This document shows positions 1-9,005 of a stretch of DNA of 9,005 nt, piece by piece (within the stretch, counting starts at the first letter, position 1; every line of letters begins with the position of its first letter). The notes beneath the pieces were generated by a model. That model was not told where the DNA came from. It was given only the letters and a program-made list of their open reading frames with translations, and ran no database searches. Position numbers and translations under genes: made by a program. Origin of the DNA: a virus (Duplodnaviria > Heunggongvirae > Uroviricota > Caudoviricetes); IMG/VR virus record IMGVR_UViG_3300000301_000068, one strand, 5' to 3'.

Positions 1-2309
1 TTTTTAAACCACTGCCACGCGGCCTGTAACTTTTCGCCCAGCCAGTCAAACACCGGCTTCAGTGGCGTGAACAGTTCCCCCACCGGCGCAAATGCCGCTT
101 TCAGCCCTTCAACCACACCGCCAAAGAATGCGCTGACAGGCTCCCAGTATTTACGGATAAGCAACGCCCCGGCGACAATGGCGGCCACCACGGCCACAAC
201 CGGCCAGCTAATCGCCCCGATGGCCGTCATAACAGCACTGCCAACTGTCGTGAAGATTGCCCCCATTGCGCCTGCTGCCGCGATAATGGCATTGATGCCG
301 GTGATAACCGGCCAGGCTACAAGACCAATGGCACCGATGATGCCAGTAAGCGCCAGCGCGCCACCGACAATGAGGCCGATGGTTGACGCCAGTGATTTGT
401 TTTTCTGGATCCAGCCGTCGAGTTTTAACACATACTTTGTGGCCGTCTGAGTGAGCTTACGCAGTGCGCCTTCCTGCTGGTCAAACAGGTCAGTCCCCAC
501 CGCCTCATAAGCGGACTGAAACTCCTTAAAGTCNNNNNNNNNNNNNNNNNNNNNNNNNNNNNNNNNNNNNNNNNNNNNNNNNNNNNNNNNNNNNNNNNNN
601 NNNNNNNNNNNNNNNNNNNNNNNNNNNNNNNNNNNNNNNNNNNNNNNNNNNNNNNNNNNNNNNNNNGCTTTAAACGCAGCGGTCAGTTTGTCCAGCTTTC
701 CAGTTGAGGCGGCAGTCATCAGCACGGCGGCGGCTGAGCTGGCCTCCTCCCCGAAAATAGTTTTCATGTATTCAGCCTGCTGGGCAGTACCGAGCCGGTT
801 TTTCTCAAAACTGGCCTGCATTTCNNNNNNNNNNNNNNNNNNNNNNNNNNNNNNNNNNNNNNNNNNNNNNNNNNNNNNNNNNNNNNNNNNNNNNNNNNNN
901 NNNNNNNNNNNNAATGGTAAATATTGGTCGGGTATTCCCCTTACTGTCTGAGGTTTTCACGCCAAGCTCTTTGAGTGCATCCCATGCTTTTCCCGTTGGT
1001 GCCTGCAGGCGACTTAACACGGCACGGCTTCCCGTCCCCGCCATTGNNNNNNNNNNNNNNNNNNNNNNNNNNNNNNNNNNNNNNNNNNNNNNNNNNNNNN
1101 NNNNNNNNNNNNNNNNNNNNNNNNNNNNNNNNNNNNNNNNNNNNNNNNNNNNNNNNNNNNNNNNNNNNNNNNNNNNNNNNNNNNNNNNNNNNNNNNNNNN
1201 NNNNNNNNNNNNNNNNNNNNNNNNNNCATCGCTCATGCCGTCAAAATCGGCGGCGGTTTTGTTCATCGTCATGGAGAGAACATCCCCGATATGAGCGACC
1301 TTATCGTTTGAAAGCTGAAAGGCGGATTTCATCCCCATCAACAGGGCGGCGTTTTCTTCCATCGTGCGACGGTTCGCCAGCGCCATATTCAGCGTGACCG
1401 GCGTTGCCGCCTGAATGGCATCAACATCCCCGCCGGCTTTCGCAATGATAATCTGCGCACCGGCTGCATCATCCGCCGAGGCGGCGGTGTTGTCGCCGAG
1501 CTGGCGCGCCTGCTTGCGTAGCGCGGCCATTTCTGCGGAGTCTTTTGCCACACCGAGCACGGCCTGTAATTCTGAGTTTTTCTGCGCAAACTCATAACCG
1601 GGCATCAGTAGCTTAACACCGGCCATCGTTCCCGCCGCCGCAATCCCCACACCGGCAGCGCCCACTGAGGCCATATTTCCGGCCAGTTCCTTTCCGGCCT
1701 GATAACGCTGTTTGACTGCGTTAAGTTTTGCCTGTTGTGCACTGACACGCGCCAGTGCGTCGCGCTGACGGTTAAGTTGTGCGGTGGTTTCACTGATACG
1801 GTTTTTCAGCCCCTGCTCATCATGTGCAAGATTGCGGGTATTAATTCCCACAGCGGCCAGTTCCCGCTGCTGGCGTTTAACGGAATCCGTCAGGCGGTTA
1901 TATTTCGCCTGTAAGTCCTCCGCCGCACGCTTTGCGGATTCCAGCACTTTCGCCTGAGCACGGGTCGGACGTTCGGTGTTTTTAAACTGTGTGGCAAGGG
2001 CTTCGGCCTCCTGCCGTGCCTTTTCAAGTGCATGACCAGTCACAGCGAGCTGTGCACTGGTCTTGCGGAATCCCTCAATACGGGATGCGTGACCGTTCAG
2101 CTCGCGCAGTGATTTTTGTGTTTCCCGGATATCCCCCGACAGCGATCTGCTCGCTGTACGGATGGATTTAAACGGGCGGGATGCCTGGTCAACAGCCCTG
2201 AGCAATACCTGTNNNNNNNNNNCTTGCTCGCTGTGCGGATGGATTTAAACGGGCGGGATGCCTGGTCAACAGCCCTGAGCAATACCTGTAATTTTACATT
2301 GTTACTCAT
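1..2309 (-). CDS. T: Phage tail tape measure protein (P2 gpT-like); 3' end runs off the window start
   Basis: Minus-strand ATG at 2309-2307 (MSNNVKLQVLLRAVDQASRPFKSIRTAS...) with GGAAG 6 nt upstream. Long coiled-coil-like Q/R/A/E/L-rich sequence (track ORF 805..2205), then my own translation of 667-824 (EMQASFEKNRLGTAQQAEYMKTIFGEEASSAAAVLMTAASTGKLDKLTAAFK) and a Gly/Ala-rich hydrophobic segment encoded antisense to plus ORF 67..450. Sits directly after E+E' as in P2. Interrupted by N-runs 534-666, 825-912, 1047-1226 and by the 10-N join at 2213-2222 with duplicated flanks, so the frame looks broken in the track. Confidence 0.85.
2145..2290. repeat. Uncollapsed contig overlap: 2145-2212 repeats 2223-2290 across a 10-N gap (2213-2222); likely assembly artefact
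   Basis: About 65 nt (ctcgctgt[a/g]cggatggatttaaacgggcgggatgcctggtcaacagccctgagcaatacctgt) occur on both sides of the N10 run. The single internal difference is a synonymous third-position change (cgt/cgc, Arg) in the T reading frame. The few bases adjoining the gap differ, as expected for contig ends. Confidence 0.7.
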
Positions 2310-2729
2310 TCGTGCTTCCGCTTCGCCGGAGCGCCTTTTCACGCCATGTGATGAGTTCGGTCAGGCTCATGGGATACAGTTCTGATGGCGGCCAGTGAAA
2401 TATCACTGCCACATCCGCCATCAGGTCATCGACCGACAGATTTTTCGGGAACGTCACTGCACCGAGTTCGGCGACAAAAAACCGACCACCTTACCGGCCA
2501 GCGCCACAAGGTCAGGCAGTTCCAGCGCGGCGACCTCCTGCTCGGTCAGCATCGGTGCCGTCATGCGCGGCAGCACTTTAATCAGTGCATCGACTTCAGA
2601 GTTTGCGACCGCAGCCAGACTGACACCGCGCAGCGTCCCCGCACAGGGTTTCATCAGCGTGACCTGTTCGATAACCTGCTCACCACGCTTGACCGGATTG
2701 TCCAGGGTAATCACATTTTCTTTGTTCAT
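2302..2729 (-). CDS. E+E': E+E' tail assembly chaperone fusion made by programmed -1 ribosomal frameshift (P2 gpE+E'-like)
   Basis: The -1 frame from the slippery site at 2481-2475 stays open for about 58 codons (VAELGAVTFPKNLSVDDLMADVAVIFHWPPSELYPMSLTELITWREKALRRSGSTNE) and stops at TAA 2304-2302. That stop overlaps the T start as ATGAGTAA. I translated this by hand; the arrangement matches the known P2 E/E' and lambda G/GT pattern. Confidence 0.65.
2454..2729 (-). CDS. E: Phage tail protein E (tail assembly chaperone, zero-frame product)
   Basis: 91-aa ORF MNKENVITLDNPVKRGEQVIEQVTLMKPCAGTLRGVSLAAVANSEVDALIKVLPRMTAPMLTEQEVAALELPDLVALAGKVVGFLSPNSVQ, near-identical to my recollection of P2 gpE. 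Lies between the tube gene and the tape measure. Stop is TGA at 2456-2454. Confidence 0.8.
   Translation of the reverse strand: MNKENVITLDNPVKRGEQVIEQVTLMKPCAGTLRGVSLAAVANSEVDALIKVLPRMTAPMLTEQEVAALELPDLVALAGKVVGFLSPNSVQ
2475..2481 (-). other. Slippery heptamer T_TTT_TTG for the E to E' -1 frameshift
   Basis: Minus strand reads GGT TTT TTG in the E frame (plus strand caaaaaa at 2475-2481), giving an X_XXY_YYZ heptamer 8 codons before the E stop. The -1 frame is open from here to the T start. Confidence 0.6.
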
Positions 2730-2757
2730 GGTTTTCTCACTTCTGAATCAGGGTTAA

Positions 2758-2778
2758 CCGGTCAGCCAGGCTGACCGG
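2758..2778 (-). promoter_or_regulatory. Perfect GC-rich hairpin (9-bp stem, 3-nt loop) in the FII-E intergenic region; possible attenuator or mRNA processing/stability element
   Basis: ccggtcagc-cag-gctgaccgg is a perfect inverted repeat starting 7 nt after the FII stop (TGA at 2788-2786). No U-run follows on the minus strand, so it is not a canonical intrinsic terminator. Confidence 0.4.
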
Positions 2779-2785
2779 ATGAAAA

Positions 2786-3498
2786 TCACAGGCCGATATT
2801 GCGGCGGTGTTGCTCCAGCCGGTCGACGCCATTCACCTTCTCAATCATGTTAATGGTGTCGATTTCGACCAGTTCCTTACCGTCCATCGTCAGCCGGAAA
2901 TAGGTGCAGACCACGGAGATTTTCGACTCGGTGTCTTCTCCCTGTTTACCCTCGCCGGTGTCGATTTCTTTCTGACGGCCACGCATGACCACTTCGACGG
3001 CCACCGTTTCGCCGGTATCGTCACGCTGGTAAGAGCCTGCAAAACGAATCGGCACGGCATCCACACCGGTTGCGGCGTAAAGTTCCCAGATAACCGAATC
3101 CGGGAAGCCCCCGAGCNNNNNNNNNNATCTTCTCCCTGTTTCCCCTCGCCGGTGTCGATTTCTTTCTGACGTCCACGCATGACCACCTCGACGGCCACCG
3201 TTTCGCCGGTATCGTCACGCTGGTAAGAACCAGCAAAACGAATCGGCACGGCATCCACACCGGTTGCGGCGTAAAGCTCCCAGATAACCGAATCCGGGAA
3301 GCCCCCGAGCGACCACTCCATTGACAGCGCATCGTCATCAAGGCCGAGGTCTACCGGTGCGCTGCCGTTCATCCCCGCACCGCGATAATTTTCGAGCTTA
3401 CGGGTCAGTTTTGGCAGCGTGACGGACGTTGCAACGCCCTGATAGCTGTAGCCGTTCAGAAAGACATTCATGTATTTGAGTTTGCGCGGCATTGCCAT
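2786..3498 (-). CDS. FII: Tail tube protein (P2 gpFII-like); frame broken in this assembly by a 183-bp duplicated overlap and 10-N gap
   Basis: ATG at 3498-3496 with GGAG 8 nt upstream (MAMPRKLKYMNVFLNGYSYQGVATSVTLPKLTRKLENYRGAGMNGSAPVDLGLDDDALSMEWSLGGFPDSVIWELYAATGVDAVPIRFAGSYQRDDTGETVAVEVVMRGRQKEIDTGEGKQGED...). The C-terminal part ...TESKISVVCTYFRLTMDGKELVEIDTINMIEKVNGVDRLEQHRRNIGL ends at 2786. Removing 2934-3127 restores a single 172-codon ORF, the expected size for a P2-type tube protein. Confidence 0.8.
2934..3310. repeat. Uncollapsed overlap: 2934-3116 and 3128-3310 are about 97% identical (6 differences) across a 10-N gap (3117-3126)
   Basis: Direct comparison of the two 183-nt copies. 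All six differences are third-codon-position synonymous changes in the FII frame (ggt/ggg, ggc/gga, gaa/gag, gca/gct, ggc/ggt, gaa/gag). Both copies encode the identical peptide DAVPIRFAGSYQRDDTGETVAVEVVMRGRQKEIDTGEGKQGED. Confidence 0.75.
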
Positions 3499-3510
3499 CG
3501 GTCAGGCTCC

Positions 3511-4849
3511 TTAATTGCTGTTAACCGAGGTGACCAGATTTGCCAGGTATTTATCGGTAATACGCTGGCGCAGGGTCAGGTTTTCGAGAGGAGGCACCGG
3601 GGTATAGTCGTAGTCGATATACAGTTTTCCGGCCTTGAGGGTTTCCGCATCGTTGGATTCTTCGCTGAACCAGCAGGTCGCATCCACGATATAGCCGTTT
3701 GTTTTCAGCTCTCGGAATTTGGCATTGATGCCGTCAACGATGTCGCGAATCAGCGTTGCGGTGATGGGCTTGTCCACCGCCCACATGTGCGCCTCAGCCA
3801 TCGTGTCGGCCAGCACCTGCGCGGTGCGGGTGTAGTTTTCAAAGAGGAACAGCGGGTCATCAGAGCAGGTACGGTTACCCCAGAAGCGGAAACCGTCGCG
3901 GCGAATCAGCGTAGTGACGCCTGACTCGTTAAGCAGGTCAGCATCGGTGCCGGACTCCTGCAAATCCCAGAATACGGACGCGCTGATGCCGGTAACACCG
4001 TTCACCCCGACGTTGGACAGCGTTTTATGCCAGCCCTGCTCCTGGTCGATTTTAGCACGCAGCCCCAGCGCACGGGCGGTGGCATACGCGGTGGCGGTGG
4101 TACTGGTGACCGTATCCCATGCGAGGAAATCCGGCCAGATGACCATCAGCTCACGCTGGCTGAAATTCTGGCGGTAGGCTTTCACCTCGGAAATAGTTTT
4201 ACAGCCCCATGCGCTGATATACCCGAAAGCGCGCAGCTTCTGACAGACTGATGCCAGTGCAACAGCCACCTCTTTGGTATCCAGCCCCGGCACACCAAGA
4301 ATACGCGGTTTAACANNNNNNNNNNNNNNNNNNNNNNNNNNNNNNNNNNNNNNNNNNNNNNNNNNNNNNNNNNNNNNNNNNNNNNNNNNNNNNNNNNNNN
4401 NNNNNNNNNNNNNNNNNNNNNNNNNNNNNNNNNNNNNNNNNNNNGGTGGTTCCGATGATATTGGAAACAGTCTGCGCGAGTTTCGTTTCCTCGTCGTCGC
4501 CGGTGCCGTCTTCCACGCGCACAACAACGGTGACCGGTTTTGACTGGTCGGCGATGGCCTGCAGCGACGCCGCCAGCGTGCCTTTTTTACCGGCCTTTGC
4601 AATTGCGCTCTGCACATTNNNNNNNNNNNNNNNNNNNNNNNNNNNNNNNNNNNNNNNNNNNNNNNNNNNNNNNNNNNNNNNNNNNNNNNNNNNNNNNNNN
4701 NNNNNNNNNNNNNNNNNNNNNNNNNNNNNNNNNNNNNNNNNNNNNNNNNNNNNNNNNNNNNNNCCGACAATGGCGGTGGATACGGTGGAAATGACGCGGG
4801 TGCCGTCGTTAATCTCCAGCACCTGCACGCCATGATGATAGTCGCTCAT
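3511..4849 (-). CDS. FI: Contractile tail sheath protein (P2 gpFI-like); interrupted by N-runs 4316-4444 and 4619-4763
   Basis: ATG at 4849-4847 with GGAG 9 nt upstream. N-terminus [28 protein letters not shown], middle segment [58 protein letters not shown], and long C-terminal part [37 protein letters not shown]...[25 protein letters not shown] ending at TAA 3513-3511. The frame changes across the 4316-4444 N-run, which is why the track splits it into two ORFs. Confidence 0.85.
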
Positions 4850-4854
4850 CCGTT

Positions 4855-4945
4855 TAACTCCGTGGTTAATGGGTGAGTGGTATTTTCAGTTGTGCCGGAG
4901 ATGTCAGGCTATTTGTCCCGGTTGGCTAATCGACAGCACAACCAC
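4855..4945 (-). promoter_or_regulatory. Putative late promoter region for the FI-FII-E-T operon (P2 PF-like position)
   Basis: Positional inference only: about 90 nt between the intrinsic terminator and the FI RBS. It contains a -10-like tgaaaat about 35 nt upstream of the ATG and a TGT...ACA partial dyad (TGT-N16-ACA) further upstream. The exact Ogr-box consensus I recall (TGT-N12-ACA) is not present. Confidence 0.3.
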
Positions 4946-4949
4946 CGGT

Positions 4950-4976
4950 AAAGAAAAGGCGGGCAATCAGCCCGCC
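4950..4976 (-). terminator. Rho-independent terminator ending the tail-fibre operon downstream of G
   Basis: Minus strand reads GGCGGGC-tgatt-GCCCGCC followed by TTTTCTTT, starting 5 nt after the G stop codon. Confidence 0.65.
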
Positions 4977-4981
4977 TGTGT

Positions 4982-5560
4982 TTATTGCGGTAGTTCCGGC
5001 CATTCAATATCCGGGGCATTTTCCGGCTGAACGCGATTCAGTAGCACACGGTATTTTTTCCAGTGTGTCAGGCTTAACTTTTCTTCCTCGGTAGCCATAT
5101 CTAAATCGACAGCATCCTGCAGAGTGGCAATAATTTCACCTGCATATGCAATCTGCTCTTTCTTCTGAGACTCCGCCGCTCTGACAAGCGCATCACGTTC
5201 TGCATTCTCATCATTCACCCACGCATTTCCGTCCCATTTCTGATAATCCCCCTCCGGGGAAATAGCTGTCACGTCTGGAGGTAATACGCCAAGTTCAGAA
5301 ATATAAATGGCTGCTCCTGTTTTCGTTTCGTAGACGGTCTTTCCGCGATGGTCTTCCATCAGTTCCCATTTCATTTCATCTGCATTGAAAACGGCTGCAT
5401 AACCAGCAGGAATATCAGGTGGTGCAATATCTGTACTGTTTGCAGGCAGGCCAGTATACGGCGGAATATATGCATCACTTTCGCCAATAAACTCATTGGT
5501 TCCATTAAGTAAATTGAAAACGCGGATAGTTTGTGCTTCTGCACTCATTCTGAAAGCCAT
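4982..5560 (-). CDS. G: Tail fibre assembly protein (chaperone); lambda Tfa-like N-terminal half in the P2 gpG position
   Basis: 192-aa [57 protein letters not shown]...[38 protein letters not shown]. The C-terminal [11 protein letters not shown]...EWPE motif is characteristic of the Tfa family. Its ATG overlaps the H stop (TAATG). Confidence 0.8.
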
Positions 5561-8235
5561 TATGCAAGCCTCACAATATAGTTAAATGCGATGTTTTTGA
5601 CGGTGTTTTCGGTATTACCCGTAGCATTTACCGTGATGGTGTGCCCGTGCGCACCTAATGCTACAGTGTGTGCATGGGCACCAATACCTACAGTGTGGTT
5701 ATGCTGACCAATATCCACCGTATGGGCGTGCGCTCCGGCTGTGCTGGACACCTGATTGTTTCCTGAAGCCTGTACACGCTGTTTTCCACCGACAGAGTCG
5801 CCGCCATAAACACCACCGACAGTGTGCGTATGATTGCCCGTATTGTTCGTTGATTTTGTGCCATGGTTAAACGTACTGACTGTCTTCGTGCCGTAATCAA
5901 ATGAACTGGTCGTTTTCGTCCCTAAATCCGTATTTGACGCACTGGCGCTGTGAGTATGCGATTTAATCCCGTCCTGTTCCTGTGACAATACAGCACGTCC
6001 ACTGGCGGGNNNNNNNNNNNNNNNNNNNNNNNNNNNNNNNNNNNNNNNNNNNNNNNNNNNNNNNNNNNNNNNNNNNNNNNNNNNNNNNNNNNNNCCCTTG
6101 ATTGTCCAGCCGCGCATATCTGGAATAACACCAGAAGGATAGGCAATAGCCAGTTTAGGATATGCTGCCTTATCAAACGTCTGCCCCTGCATAATTGCAT
6201 AGCCTGCAGGTGGTGTATCTGATGGCCACGGCAGCGGAACACCTGGCGGAAACGCTTCAATATTTGCCGAGCCGTCAAATTTTACGCCGTTAATTGTCCT
6301 TGCCGTTTTCAGCTTTGTTGCTGTAGCCGCATTGCCGGACAGTTCACCAGAAAGGCCTGCACTGAATGTCTGTTTTGCCTCCCATGTCTGGGCTTCGTCG
6401 ATAATTGGTAGCCGACGAATATTGAAGCTACGCTCCCCAGGATTGCCATATAAGCGGACTGTAAAAAAACGATAGTTGGTTTTGTTTGAAGTGCTGCGCC
6501 ATACCTGCATTGAACGGGCGACACCTCCGCCTTCACTGGGGCCAACAGTGATATTTATCAGGTTAGTATCAATGACGCCCCATTCCATCCCATCGGGAAT
6601 ATTGGTCATATCTGAAAGCCTGACAGTTATCATGCTGCCCGGTATAAAGTCGTAGGTCTGCCAGTCCAGATTGGATAACCTGTCGGTAACACCGCCGACA
6701 CCTAATTTAGTGAGTAATGATTTTGAGTTGTATACTTCCGCCCATTCCCCCCAGTCAGTTTCACCGCTGGCGCGGGTTCGCTGAAATGTCCGGTTTTTAT
6801 AGGCATCCGTTGCTGAAACAGTCGTATATGTCTGGATATACGATTCAATATCGCAACGTTTTTTCACCTCGACTACCGAGCCAACAGCAAGATCTTTGTC
6901 GGTAAGTGGTGCATTTGTGGCCTGTTTCGTGACGCTATAAATACCAGGCTTTAAAAGGTCATCAAGATCCCCTGAATAAGTCCATCCCGTGGACTGATAC
7001 CCAACAGCAATCCAGTCCTCCCATTGTGGATTTTCTGCATCCCATGAGGCAGTCAGTCCGCGAATGTACATAGTCCCACTACGGGTGGTGTAACGTTGCA
7101 TCTTCCCATACAGACCGCCTTCAAAGACTTCCAGAATACCCTGCCCAAAACTCCCTTCCTCCGGGAAATGACGGTCAAATGAGGCTATTGATGTACTGCT
7201 ATTGCGCCATATTCCCAGGTGTTCCGCACCACCTAAAGAATTCAGGTCAATTGACGTGCTTAATGGGCGAGTCCCGCTTGTAATAACTCTCCATGCACTC
7301 CATACAGGACTGACAGGGTTCCATTCTGCATCAAGCATCCGAATGTAAATATTACCGGTTCGGGTGGTGTAGCGTTGTGTGCAGTGAAAGCGACCAGCAT
7401 TGAATACTTCCAGAACCCCATTGCCTTTATCTTCAGGGTAACCAGACTCTGGTTTTGCAGTGGATTGTGACGGACATGACCACGTTCCAAGATATTTTTC
7501 TTCTGGGCCATAGGAGTCAAGATTGTCAGTGGTTGGAATCATTCCATTGTGTTTCATAAACGTCAGGCTGGTAACGCCAATATTGTCCAGAAAAGCGCCC
7601 TTATCTGGAATATCGCCACCATTCTGGTCTTTCTGCAGACGTTTCTCAGCATTGTCATAGGCTGCTTTTACTGCCTTTGGCGTTGCCGCCAGCTTTTCAC
7701 TGGTGCTGTTTGTTGCACTGCTTAACTGAGTAAAACCTTTTTCTGTCAGCGTGGCGTCAGGATGGCGGCGGGACTGCTCATGCTCTGCGATTTTGTCATC
7801 GACGTAATCCTGCGTCGCCATCACTGTGCTGGCATCAATACTCAGCTCAACGGACGCCACATTGCTGAGAATAATAACCATGCGGCAGGTCTGCGCACGT
7901 CCGGAGCCTTCAGCCAGTTCTGGCTTATAGCTTTCTGCCATGTTGGATACCGCAATCAGTGTTCCGGCATCGTCATACAGACCAAGCTCACGCATCCAGA
8001 AGCCGCCCACTTCTGGCGGAACAACCAGTTCAGCCACGATATAGTTTTTATTCTTGTTATCCACGCTGACTTTATTCAGGGCGTGACGCCAGACCTCATG
8101 CACCAGTTTCGTCTGACCAGCATCCGGCACCGGCAATTTGCCATTACCGTCACCCACGGCCATTGCAGACAGAGTTACTTTTTTCCCGCCGGGGACAGTG
8201 GCGGCTGCCAGCTTCGCGGCTCCGGCAGTAGTGAT
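5560..8235 (-). CDS. H: Tail fibre protein (P2 gpH-like N-terminus, divergent distal receptor-binding region); 5' end hidden in N-run 8237-8402, internal N-run 6010-6094
   Basis: My translation upstream of the track ORF start gives [56 protein letters not shown]..., matching the conserved gpH N-terminus as I recall it, so the true start lies in the N-run. The ORF stays open to TAA 5562-5560 and ends ...[11 protein letters not shown]. It contains the PDMRG collar-like motif, an internal tandem domain repeat and a His-rich HxH C-terminal region. Confidence 0.85.
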
Positions 8236-8402
8236 ANNNNNNNNNNNNNNNNNNNNNNNNNNNNNNNNNNNNNNNNNNNNNNNNNNNNNNNNNNNNNNNN
8301 NNNNNNNNNNNNNNNNNNNNNNNNNNNNNNNNNNNNNNNNNNNNNNNNNNNNNNNNNNNNNNNNNNNNNNNNNNNNNNNNNNNNNNNNNNNNNNNNNNNN
8401 NN

Positions 8403-8879
8403 CAGATAGCCGGGAATGTCCTGGATAATGTTCAGACCGATAAGGTGGCGACTTGCGGGTTTGGCATCGGCAATCAGCCGTTCCATTTCCAGATACATCT
8501 CCTCCGTGATGCCGCTTTCCAGCACACCGATATCAAGGCGAAAGGTTCCGGGCGGGTCGTTTGTCTCCCACCATTCCTTTACGTTAATGAGATAGCCGAG
8601 CGGCTCCACCACACGCCGGATTGCGCCTATAGTGCCTTTATGACAGTGGATGAAATAGGCATCACGGATAACGGCGCGTTTTGTCGCTTCCGGCCACTTT
8701 TCATCCCAGCGGTCAACCGAAAATGACCACGCCAGCCACGGCAGCAGATTTGCCGGACAGGTGTCCGGGTTCCACAGCTCACGAATACTGACCGGCGTTT
8801 TTTCAATTTCCGCACAGGCTTTTGCGGCAGCGACTTCAAGCGGTGATGAGCCGGTCGGCAGCAGTCGCGAATCATTCAT
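8403..8879 (-). CDS. I: Baseplate assembly / tail protein I (P2 gpI-like); 3' end hidden in N-run 8237-8402
   Basis: ATG at 8879-8877 with GGAGG 7 nt upstream. MNDSRLLPTGSSPLEVAAAKACAEIEKTPVSIRELWNPDTCPANLLPWLAWSFSVDRWDEKWPEATKRAVIRDAYFIHCHKGTIGAIRRVVEPLGYLINVKEWWETNDPPGTFRLDIGVLESGITEEMYLEMERLIADAKPASRHLIGLNIIQDIPGYL is the visible 159 aa. It sits immediately upstream of H as in P2. The track's continuation through the N-run is not reliable. Confidence 0.8.
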
Positions 8880-9005
8880 CCGAGCCTCCGGTCACGACGC
8901 TGTATTCAGTACAGAAAGACGCCTGCGTACTGTTGAGCACGATGTCGGCCAGTGGTGCAGCCAGTTCGACACGCTGCACGCCTTCCACATGCAAAGCGGC
9001 ATAAA
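8872..9005 (-). CDS. J: C-terminal end of baseplate assembly protein J (inferred from synteny); 5' part outside window
   Basis: Open minus-strand frame reading YAALHVEGVQRVELAAPLADIVLNSTQASFCTEYSVVTGGSDE, ending at TGA 8874-8872 and overlapping the I start by 8 nt (ATGAATGA). Identity as gpJ rests on gene order alone. Confidence 0.5.
   Translation of the reverse strand, partial: YAALHVEGVQRVELAAPLADIVLNSTQASFCTEYSVVTGGSDE

Follow-up and report, generated by a model that had tools for sequence, protein, structure and literature searches.

Two apparent repeats in the draft tail cluster of a P2-like prophage are overlapping contig ends, probably derived from two related templates

Results

The window, by which we mean the whole 9,005-nt stretch of DNA analysed here, carries a P2-like (Peduovirus) tail cluster in the order T-E/E'-FII-FI-G-H-I-J, which extends over positions 1-9005 on the minus strand and is present as a draft of ten contigs (134-2142 nt) with nine runs of N between them. 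In order along the window, these runs measure 133, 88, 180, 10, 10, 129, 145, 85 and 166 bases. The two 10-base runs lie at 2213-2222, at the join within the tape measure gene T, and at 3117-3126, at the join within the tail tube gene FII; the seven larger runs, at 534-666, 825-912, 1047-1226, 4316-4444, 4619-4763, 6010-6094 and 8237-8402, are absent from the finding made in a preliminary description of this DNA. Sequence comparison gave nucleotide identities of 94-98% to P2, P24A7b, L-413C and many Escherichia coli (E. coli) prophages, and the features annotated beneath the matches were the tail tube FII, the tail sheath FI, the tape measure T and others. The gene names FII and T that had been given from the letters alone were right, as P2 FII/FI and T are matched at 95-98% identity and the FII product belongs to PF04985.

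Between the two joins, the tail assembly chaperone genes E and E+E' (2302-2729, minus strand) are intact. E lies at 2454-2729 and E' extends to 2302 on the same strand; the slippery site G TTT TTT G (2475-2481, minus strand), the canonical site of the programmed -1 frameshift of P2 E/E', is intact as well, and the shifted E frame leads to a 142-aa E+E' product that ends beside the T start, the start codon of T being at 2307-2309. Elsewhere in the window, the spacer between the tail fibre assembly gene G and the sheath gene FI (4834-4981) is approximately 150 nt long and gene-free. The corresponding position, which we take to be the variable Z/fun hot spot of P2-like phages, is occupied by a 1977-nt hypothetical gene in E. 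coli FDAARGOS_1337 (L001), by three small ORFs in P24A7b (L002), and by other cargo in the reference loci L043-L052.

A repeat search recovered just two direct repeats of at least 25 nt in the whole window, both adjoining the 10-base N runs on both sides, and no inverted repeats in the window. The intervals returned by this search were 2934-3116 versus 3128-3310 (183 nt, 97%) and 2148-2212 versus 2225-2289 (65 nt, 98%). A separate scan for overlapping ends identified exactly one good register per 10-base run and placed the limits of the overlaps slightly wider, with 184 nt and 7 differences at the FII join (2933-3116 versus 3127-3310) and 67 nt and 3 differences at the T join (2146-2212 versus 2223-2289). 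The earlier observation that repeats flank these two gaps was thus reproduced by two independent scans, and its measurements need adjustment: the FII repeat, reported as 183 nt with 6 differences, is real and has an extra G/A pair at 2933/3127, and the T repeat, reported as about 65 nt with 1 difference, was correctly described in its core and not in its full extent.

At the FII join, the left copy (2933-3116, minus strand) forms the plus-strand 3' end of the contig at 2223-3116 and encodes residues L64-D124, and the right copy (3127-3310, minus strand), which forms the start of the contig at 3127-4315, encodes the same 61 residues. The FII copies differ by substitutions, with no indels between them. 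At the T join, the left copy (2146-2212, minus strand) is the end of the contig at 1227-2212, spans codons 8-29 of the tape measure gene along with a single base of codon 7, and has the reading ...RTASR; the right copy (2223-2289, minus strand) is the start of the contig at 2223-3116 and reads ...RTASK.

For comparison with related phages, the window was split at its N runs and each piece was mapped on up to 52 related loci. The contigs at the T join map 67 nt into each other (41 references), and those at the FII join map 184 nt into each other (13 references with alignments reaching the contig's first base); in P24B2, for example, the FII pieces occupy 17662-18078 and 17452-17844 and share 183 nt. 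Among the loci on which the pieces were mapped, 52 at most, no scorable reference contradicts the 67- and 184-nt overlaps or has a duplication. The flanking contigs therefore lie -67 and -184 nt apart in the references, indicating that each segment is single-copy in relatives (up to 42 P2-like sequences), and the 10 Ns written at each join are placeholders between contigs that truly overlap.

As assembled, FII (2786-3498, minus strand; start at 3498, stop codon at 2786-2788) is broken by a repeat with a period of 194 nt. Divided by 3, the periods of the FII and T repeats (194 and 77 nt) each leave a remainder of 2, and both genes consequently appear frameshifted. Deletion of either FII copy along with the Ns yields the same 519-nt ORF and the same 172-aa product, which matches PF04985 (Phage_tube) with E = 1.1e-60 and 204.7 bits, exceeding the gathering score (cutoff 22.4), over the full length of the profile (positions 1-165 of 165). 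The neighbours of FII are FI and E, the arrangement also seen in P2, and the de-duplicated product has one residue different from the FII of the E. coli chromosome CP185789.1. Two statements of the preliminary description are upheld by these results: the frameshifts in FII and T are artefactual, given that either collapse of FII restores an intact 172-aa ORF, and there is no real tandem duplication, given the single-copy state in the references and the restored frame. What appear as repeats are contig ends that overlap where the scaffold was joined, and as such an assembly artefact.

The seven variable sites of the FII overlap, at 2933, 2948, 2978, 2993, 3035, 3038 and 3083 in left-copy coordinates, carry the haplotype G,A,G,T,G,T,T in the left copy and A,C,T,C,A,A,C in the right copy. 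All seven differences are third-position and synonymous (GAC/GAT, GGT/GGG, GGC/GGA, GAA/GAG, GGC/GGT, GCA/GCT and GAA/GAG), including the G/A pair at 2933/3127, which is GAC versus GAT and for which both alleles are natural. With 24% of the possible single-base substitutions in this segment being synonymous, the chance that random changes would all be silent is 0.24^7 = 4.6e-5. Six of the seven sites are among the 25 positions out of 184 that are polymorphic in 22 references (P = 2e-5), a set composed of whole-window BLAST hits and exact gpG/gpE look-ups that was chosen with the FII alleles disregarded. In the 52 references, all 14 FII alleles were seen in natural P2-like sequences; many of the allele-bearing references were retrieved with window-derived patterns, such that the existence of the alleles is sound and their frequencies are biased.

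Six IMG/VR contigs (L005, L008, L011-L014) match the left FII copy exactly along its 184 nt, and the first 72 nt of the right copy have exact counterparts in 17 IMG/VR contigs. We found the whole right haplotype (A,C,T,C,A,A,C) neither in the 52 references nor in 5426 E. coli genomes; 3 of the 184 positions separate the right copy from its nearest references, and among complete E. coli genomes the highest identity is 98.4%. With 15 haplotypes at the seven FII sites among 52 references, an unsampled recombinant haplotype in the right copy would be unremarkable. The nearest relatives also differ by copy, being the L012 group for the left copy and L009, L004 and L006 for the right copy.

In the T overlap, the difference at 2158/2235 is synonymous (CGT/CGC), and the other two bases, TC at 2146-2147 versus CT at 2223-2224, result in AGA (Arg) in the left copy and AAG (Lys) in the right copy, at the right contig's first bases. 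The combination CTG at 2223, 2224 and 2235 is the commonest natural T haplotype (21 of 30 references), and both Lys (AAG, AAA) and Arg (AGG) were seen at this codon in the references. AGA was absent at this codon from the 30 references, and a 57-mer containing it had no exact match in IMG/VR or the JGI metagenomes. The earlier assertion that every difference is synonymous thus applies to the FII overlap (7/7) and to the 65-nt core of the T overlap, and breaks down over the full T overlap because of the Arg/Lys codon. Two alleles account better than error does for a conservative natural Lys/Arg polymorphism. Rare natural recombination, or else a chimera at a contig end, could underlie either the unmatched right FII haplotype or the private AGA in T.

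As a check on whether the contigs might themselves be bubble-collapsed chimeras of two haplotypes, a copying-model scan of the window contigs revealed ordinary mosaic blocks with few private alleles, and the nearest-neighbour distances of these contigs fall within the range of natural references, at its upper end. The best identity of the contigs at 2223-3116 and 3127-4315 was 98.2-98.4% across 5426 complete E. coli genomes and the fetched IMG/VR and NCBI loci; two natural IMG/VR control segments had best matches of 99.1-99.4% in E. coli genomes, where the window contigs reach 98.2-98.3%, a weak hint of such chimerism and not evidence. Sparse sampling of the phage lineage or of its host could explain the lower best identity of the window contigs, as could slight mixing of haplotypes within them. 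Exact-pattern scans of genome contigs, IMG/VR and the JGI metagenomes and exact-protein look-ups of gpG and gpE did not recover the source contig, the only hit among the genome contigs being E. albertii NBRC 107761, which is not the source. Among the loci recovered, none has N runs and none matches a window contig over its length.

The seven larger N runs exceed the corresponding distances in the references (up to 42) by 78, 82, 81, 70, 78, 81 and 79 nt, the true gaps being 55, 6, 99, 59, 67, 4 and 87 nt. When the same offset of 70-82 nt is applied to the T and FII joins, it predicts approximately 12 N and approximately -105 N, respectively, and the two 10-base runs fit a scaffolder with a floor of 10 N for small or negative gap estimates. 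The near-constant excess of about 79 nt may come from the way the scaffolder keeps account of insert size or k-mers. The overestimated gaps inflate the lengths of T, FI, H and I and shift the reading frame at three runs. The possibility that the long N runs are in-place masks was rejected, as they are 70-82 nt too long and, in three of the seven, by a number not divisible by 3. The Velvet manual is said to prescribe that gaps under 10 bp be written as 10 N. Runs of at least 10 N are a usual marker of scaffold gaps, at which QUAST splits scaffolds (PMC10091225), and the CISA paper uses the 10-N convention similarly; our search of the literature on this convention returned only the QUAST split rule and this similar use in CISA.

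Of 5426 complete E. coli genomes, 1594 contain the FII-E-T segment, at 1842 places in total and no more than 3 in any one genome; from these figures we derive that roughly 8-16% of FII-positive complete genomes have at least 2 places. In CP185789.1 (L041/L042), two P2-like tail clusters share 97.5% identity over 11 kb, and their FII pair has 23 differences, 15 of them at third codon positions; in CP125351.1 (L036/L037), the two clusters share 99.6% identity over 11 kb. Each of these chromosomes contains two full P2-like prophages with an identical gpG protein within the chromosome, and the members of each pair occupy different integration sites, with different host genes beside ogr.

Discussion

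The window would be best understood as a short-read draft scaffold of a P2-like prophage tail cluster, split into 10 contigs, in which the neighbouring contigs at two joins cover the same piece of the genome, 184 nt of FII and 67 nt of the 5' end of T. The scaffolder would have left these ends unmerged because they were not identical and would have written its minimum of 10 N instead, and the unmerged ends together with the 10 N would make both genes look as if they contained a tandem repeat and a frameshift. At each overlap, the two versions would represent two natural alleles of one segment, consistent with a read set that contained at least two closely related P2-like sequences, of which each contig end followed a different one. 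Two versions of a single-copy segment that differ by natural silent alleles imply that the reads most likely held two P2-like templates, and we consider a scaffolding artefact from two such templates at both joins to be very probable on the sequence evidence. The silent natural alleles and the different nearest relatives of the two copies indirectly support the earlier proposal that contigs from two closely related P2-like elements had been joined.

The nature of the second template can be placed less firmly. Two co-resident P2-like prophages in one genome are, judged from the letters and the comparisons above, about evenly balanced against everything else that might have supplied it. A mixed sample, such as a contaminated culture, pooled isolates or a multi-strain metagenome, in place of two prophages on one chromosome, is a possible though lesser source. 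P2-like sequences with these alleles are present in metagenome-derived IMG/VR contigs as well as in isolates, and assemblies of mixed strains are typically heavily fragmented, as is this one with its 10 contigs in 9 kb; nothing in the window speaks against a mixture, but polylysogeny is common enough to explain the data alone. A more specific scenario, in which the host was a double lysogen with two P2-like prophages approximately 96% identical in their tail genes, and in which the right FII haplotype and the AGA codon arose by continuing exchange (gene conversion) between the two resident prophages and not as assembly chimeras, appears rather unlikely. In such a double lysogen, the breaks between contigs and their overlaps would show where one prophage copy departs from the other. 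A tailocin copy, which had also been put forward, was set aside: the window has tail genes only, yet all of its close relatives are complete P2-like prophages, and nothing in the data favours it.

Sequencing or assembly errors on a single template, at contig ends of low coverage, would offer another account of the differences, which do lie close to contig ends (184 nt and 67 nt away at most); the AGA of the left T copy and the full right FII haplotype, found in no other sequence, would also be in keeping with error. However, errors would have had to fall on silent third positions in all seven cases in FII (P about 5e-5) and, in six of the seven, on positions that vary among independently chosen references (P about 2e-5), to generate only FII alleles that exist in natural phages, and to do so without a single indel difference between the copies. 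In addition, from the behaviour of de Bruijn and overlap assemblers, identical ends from a single template would be expected to have been merged. The silent, natural-allele pattern without indels effectively excludes random end-of-contig error, in line with the earlier argument that such errors would not be so selectively silent, and we regard this explanation as highly improbable. Least credible of all, to the point of being nearly negligible, are genuine in-gene tandem duplications in a decaying prophage with Ns at unresolved junctions: the sequence as written does have two head-to-tail repeats, and lesions do build up in defective prophages, but both copy-copy junctions are 10-base N runs at which the copies begin and end exactly, with no junction sequence, the 194- and 77-nt periods would put essential tail genes out of frame, yet the differences between the copies are all of the purifying-selection type and each copy keeps an open frame, all scored references lack the duplication, two independent events exactly at the sole two minimum-size gaps are implausible, and a 184-nt duplicate diverged by 3.8% at silent sites only is unexpected for a recent duplication.

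The feature is an ordinary one; it is not a biological feature and brings no new biology, and its use is as an annotation caveat and a matter of data quality. FII and T in this record should not be annotated as pseudogenes or as carriers of a duplication, and gene lengths and frames across the tail cluster are distorted by every one of the nine N runs. From the overlaps there is also a hint of more than one P2-like element in the sample, which is relevant to the counting and typing of prophages.

Several known systems provide a frame for these observations. Scaffold gaps of a minimum size of 10 N are found here in the same form, both 10-base joins having negative true distances; the seven larger gaps differ in carrying the near-constant excess of 70-82 nt. 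CP185789.1 and CP125351.1 represent the kind of template pair that would yield the 3.8% silent divergence seen in the FII overlap; they are closed genomes in which both copies are resolved, whereas for the window a second copy is deduced and not observed. A further comparison is with the late tail operon of P2/Peduovirus (FI, FII, E, E+E', T, U, D; tail fibre genes H, G). The window differs from this operon in that it is a draft broken up by 9 N runs and contains two spurious repeats, and it is without a cargo gene between G and FI, where L001 and L002 carry cargo. It shares with the operon the same gene order and strand, the same 172-aa FII (PF04985) and the same canonical E/E' slippery site.
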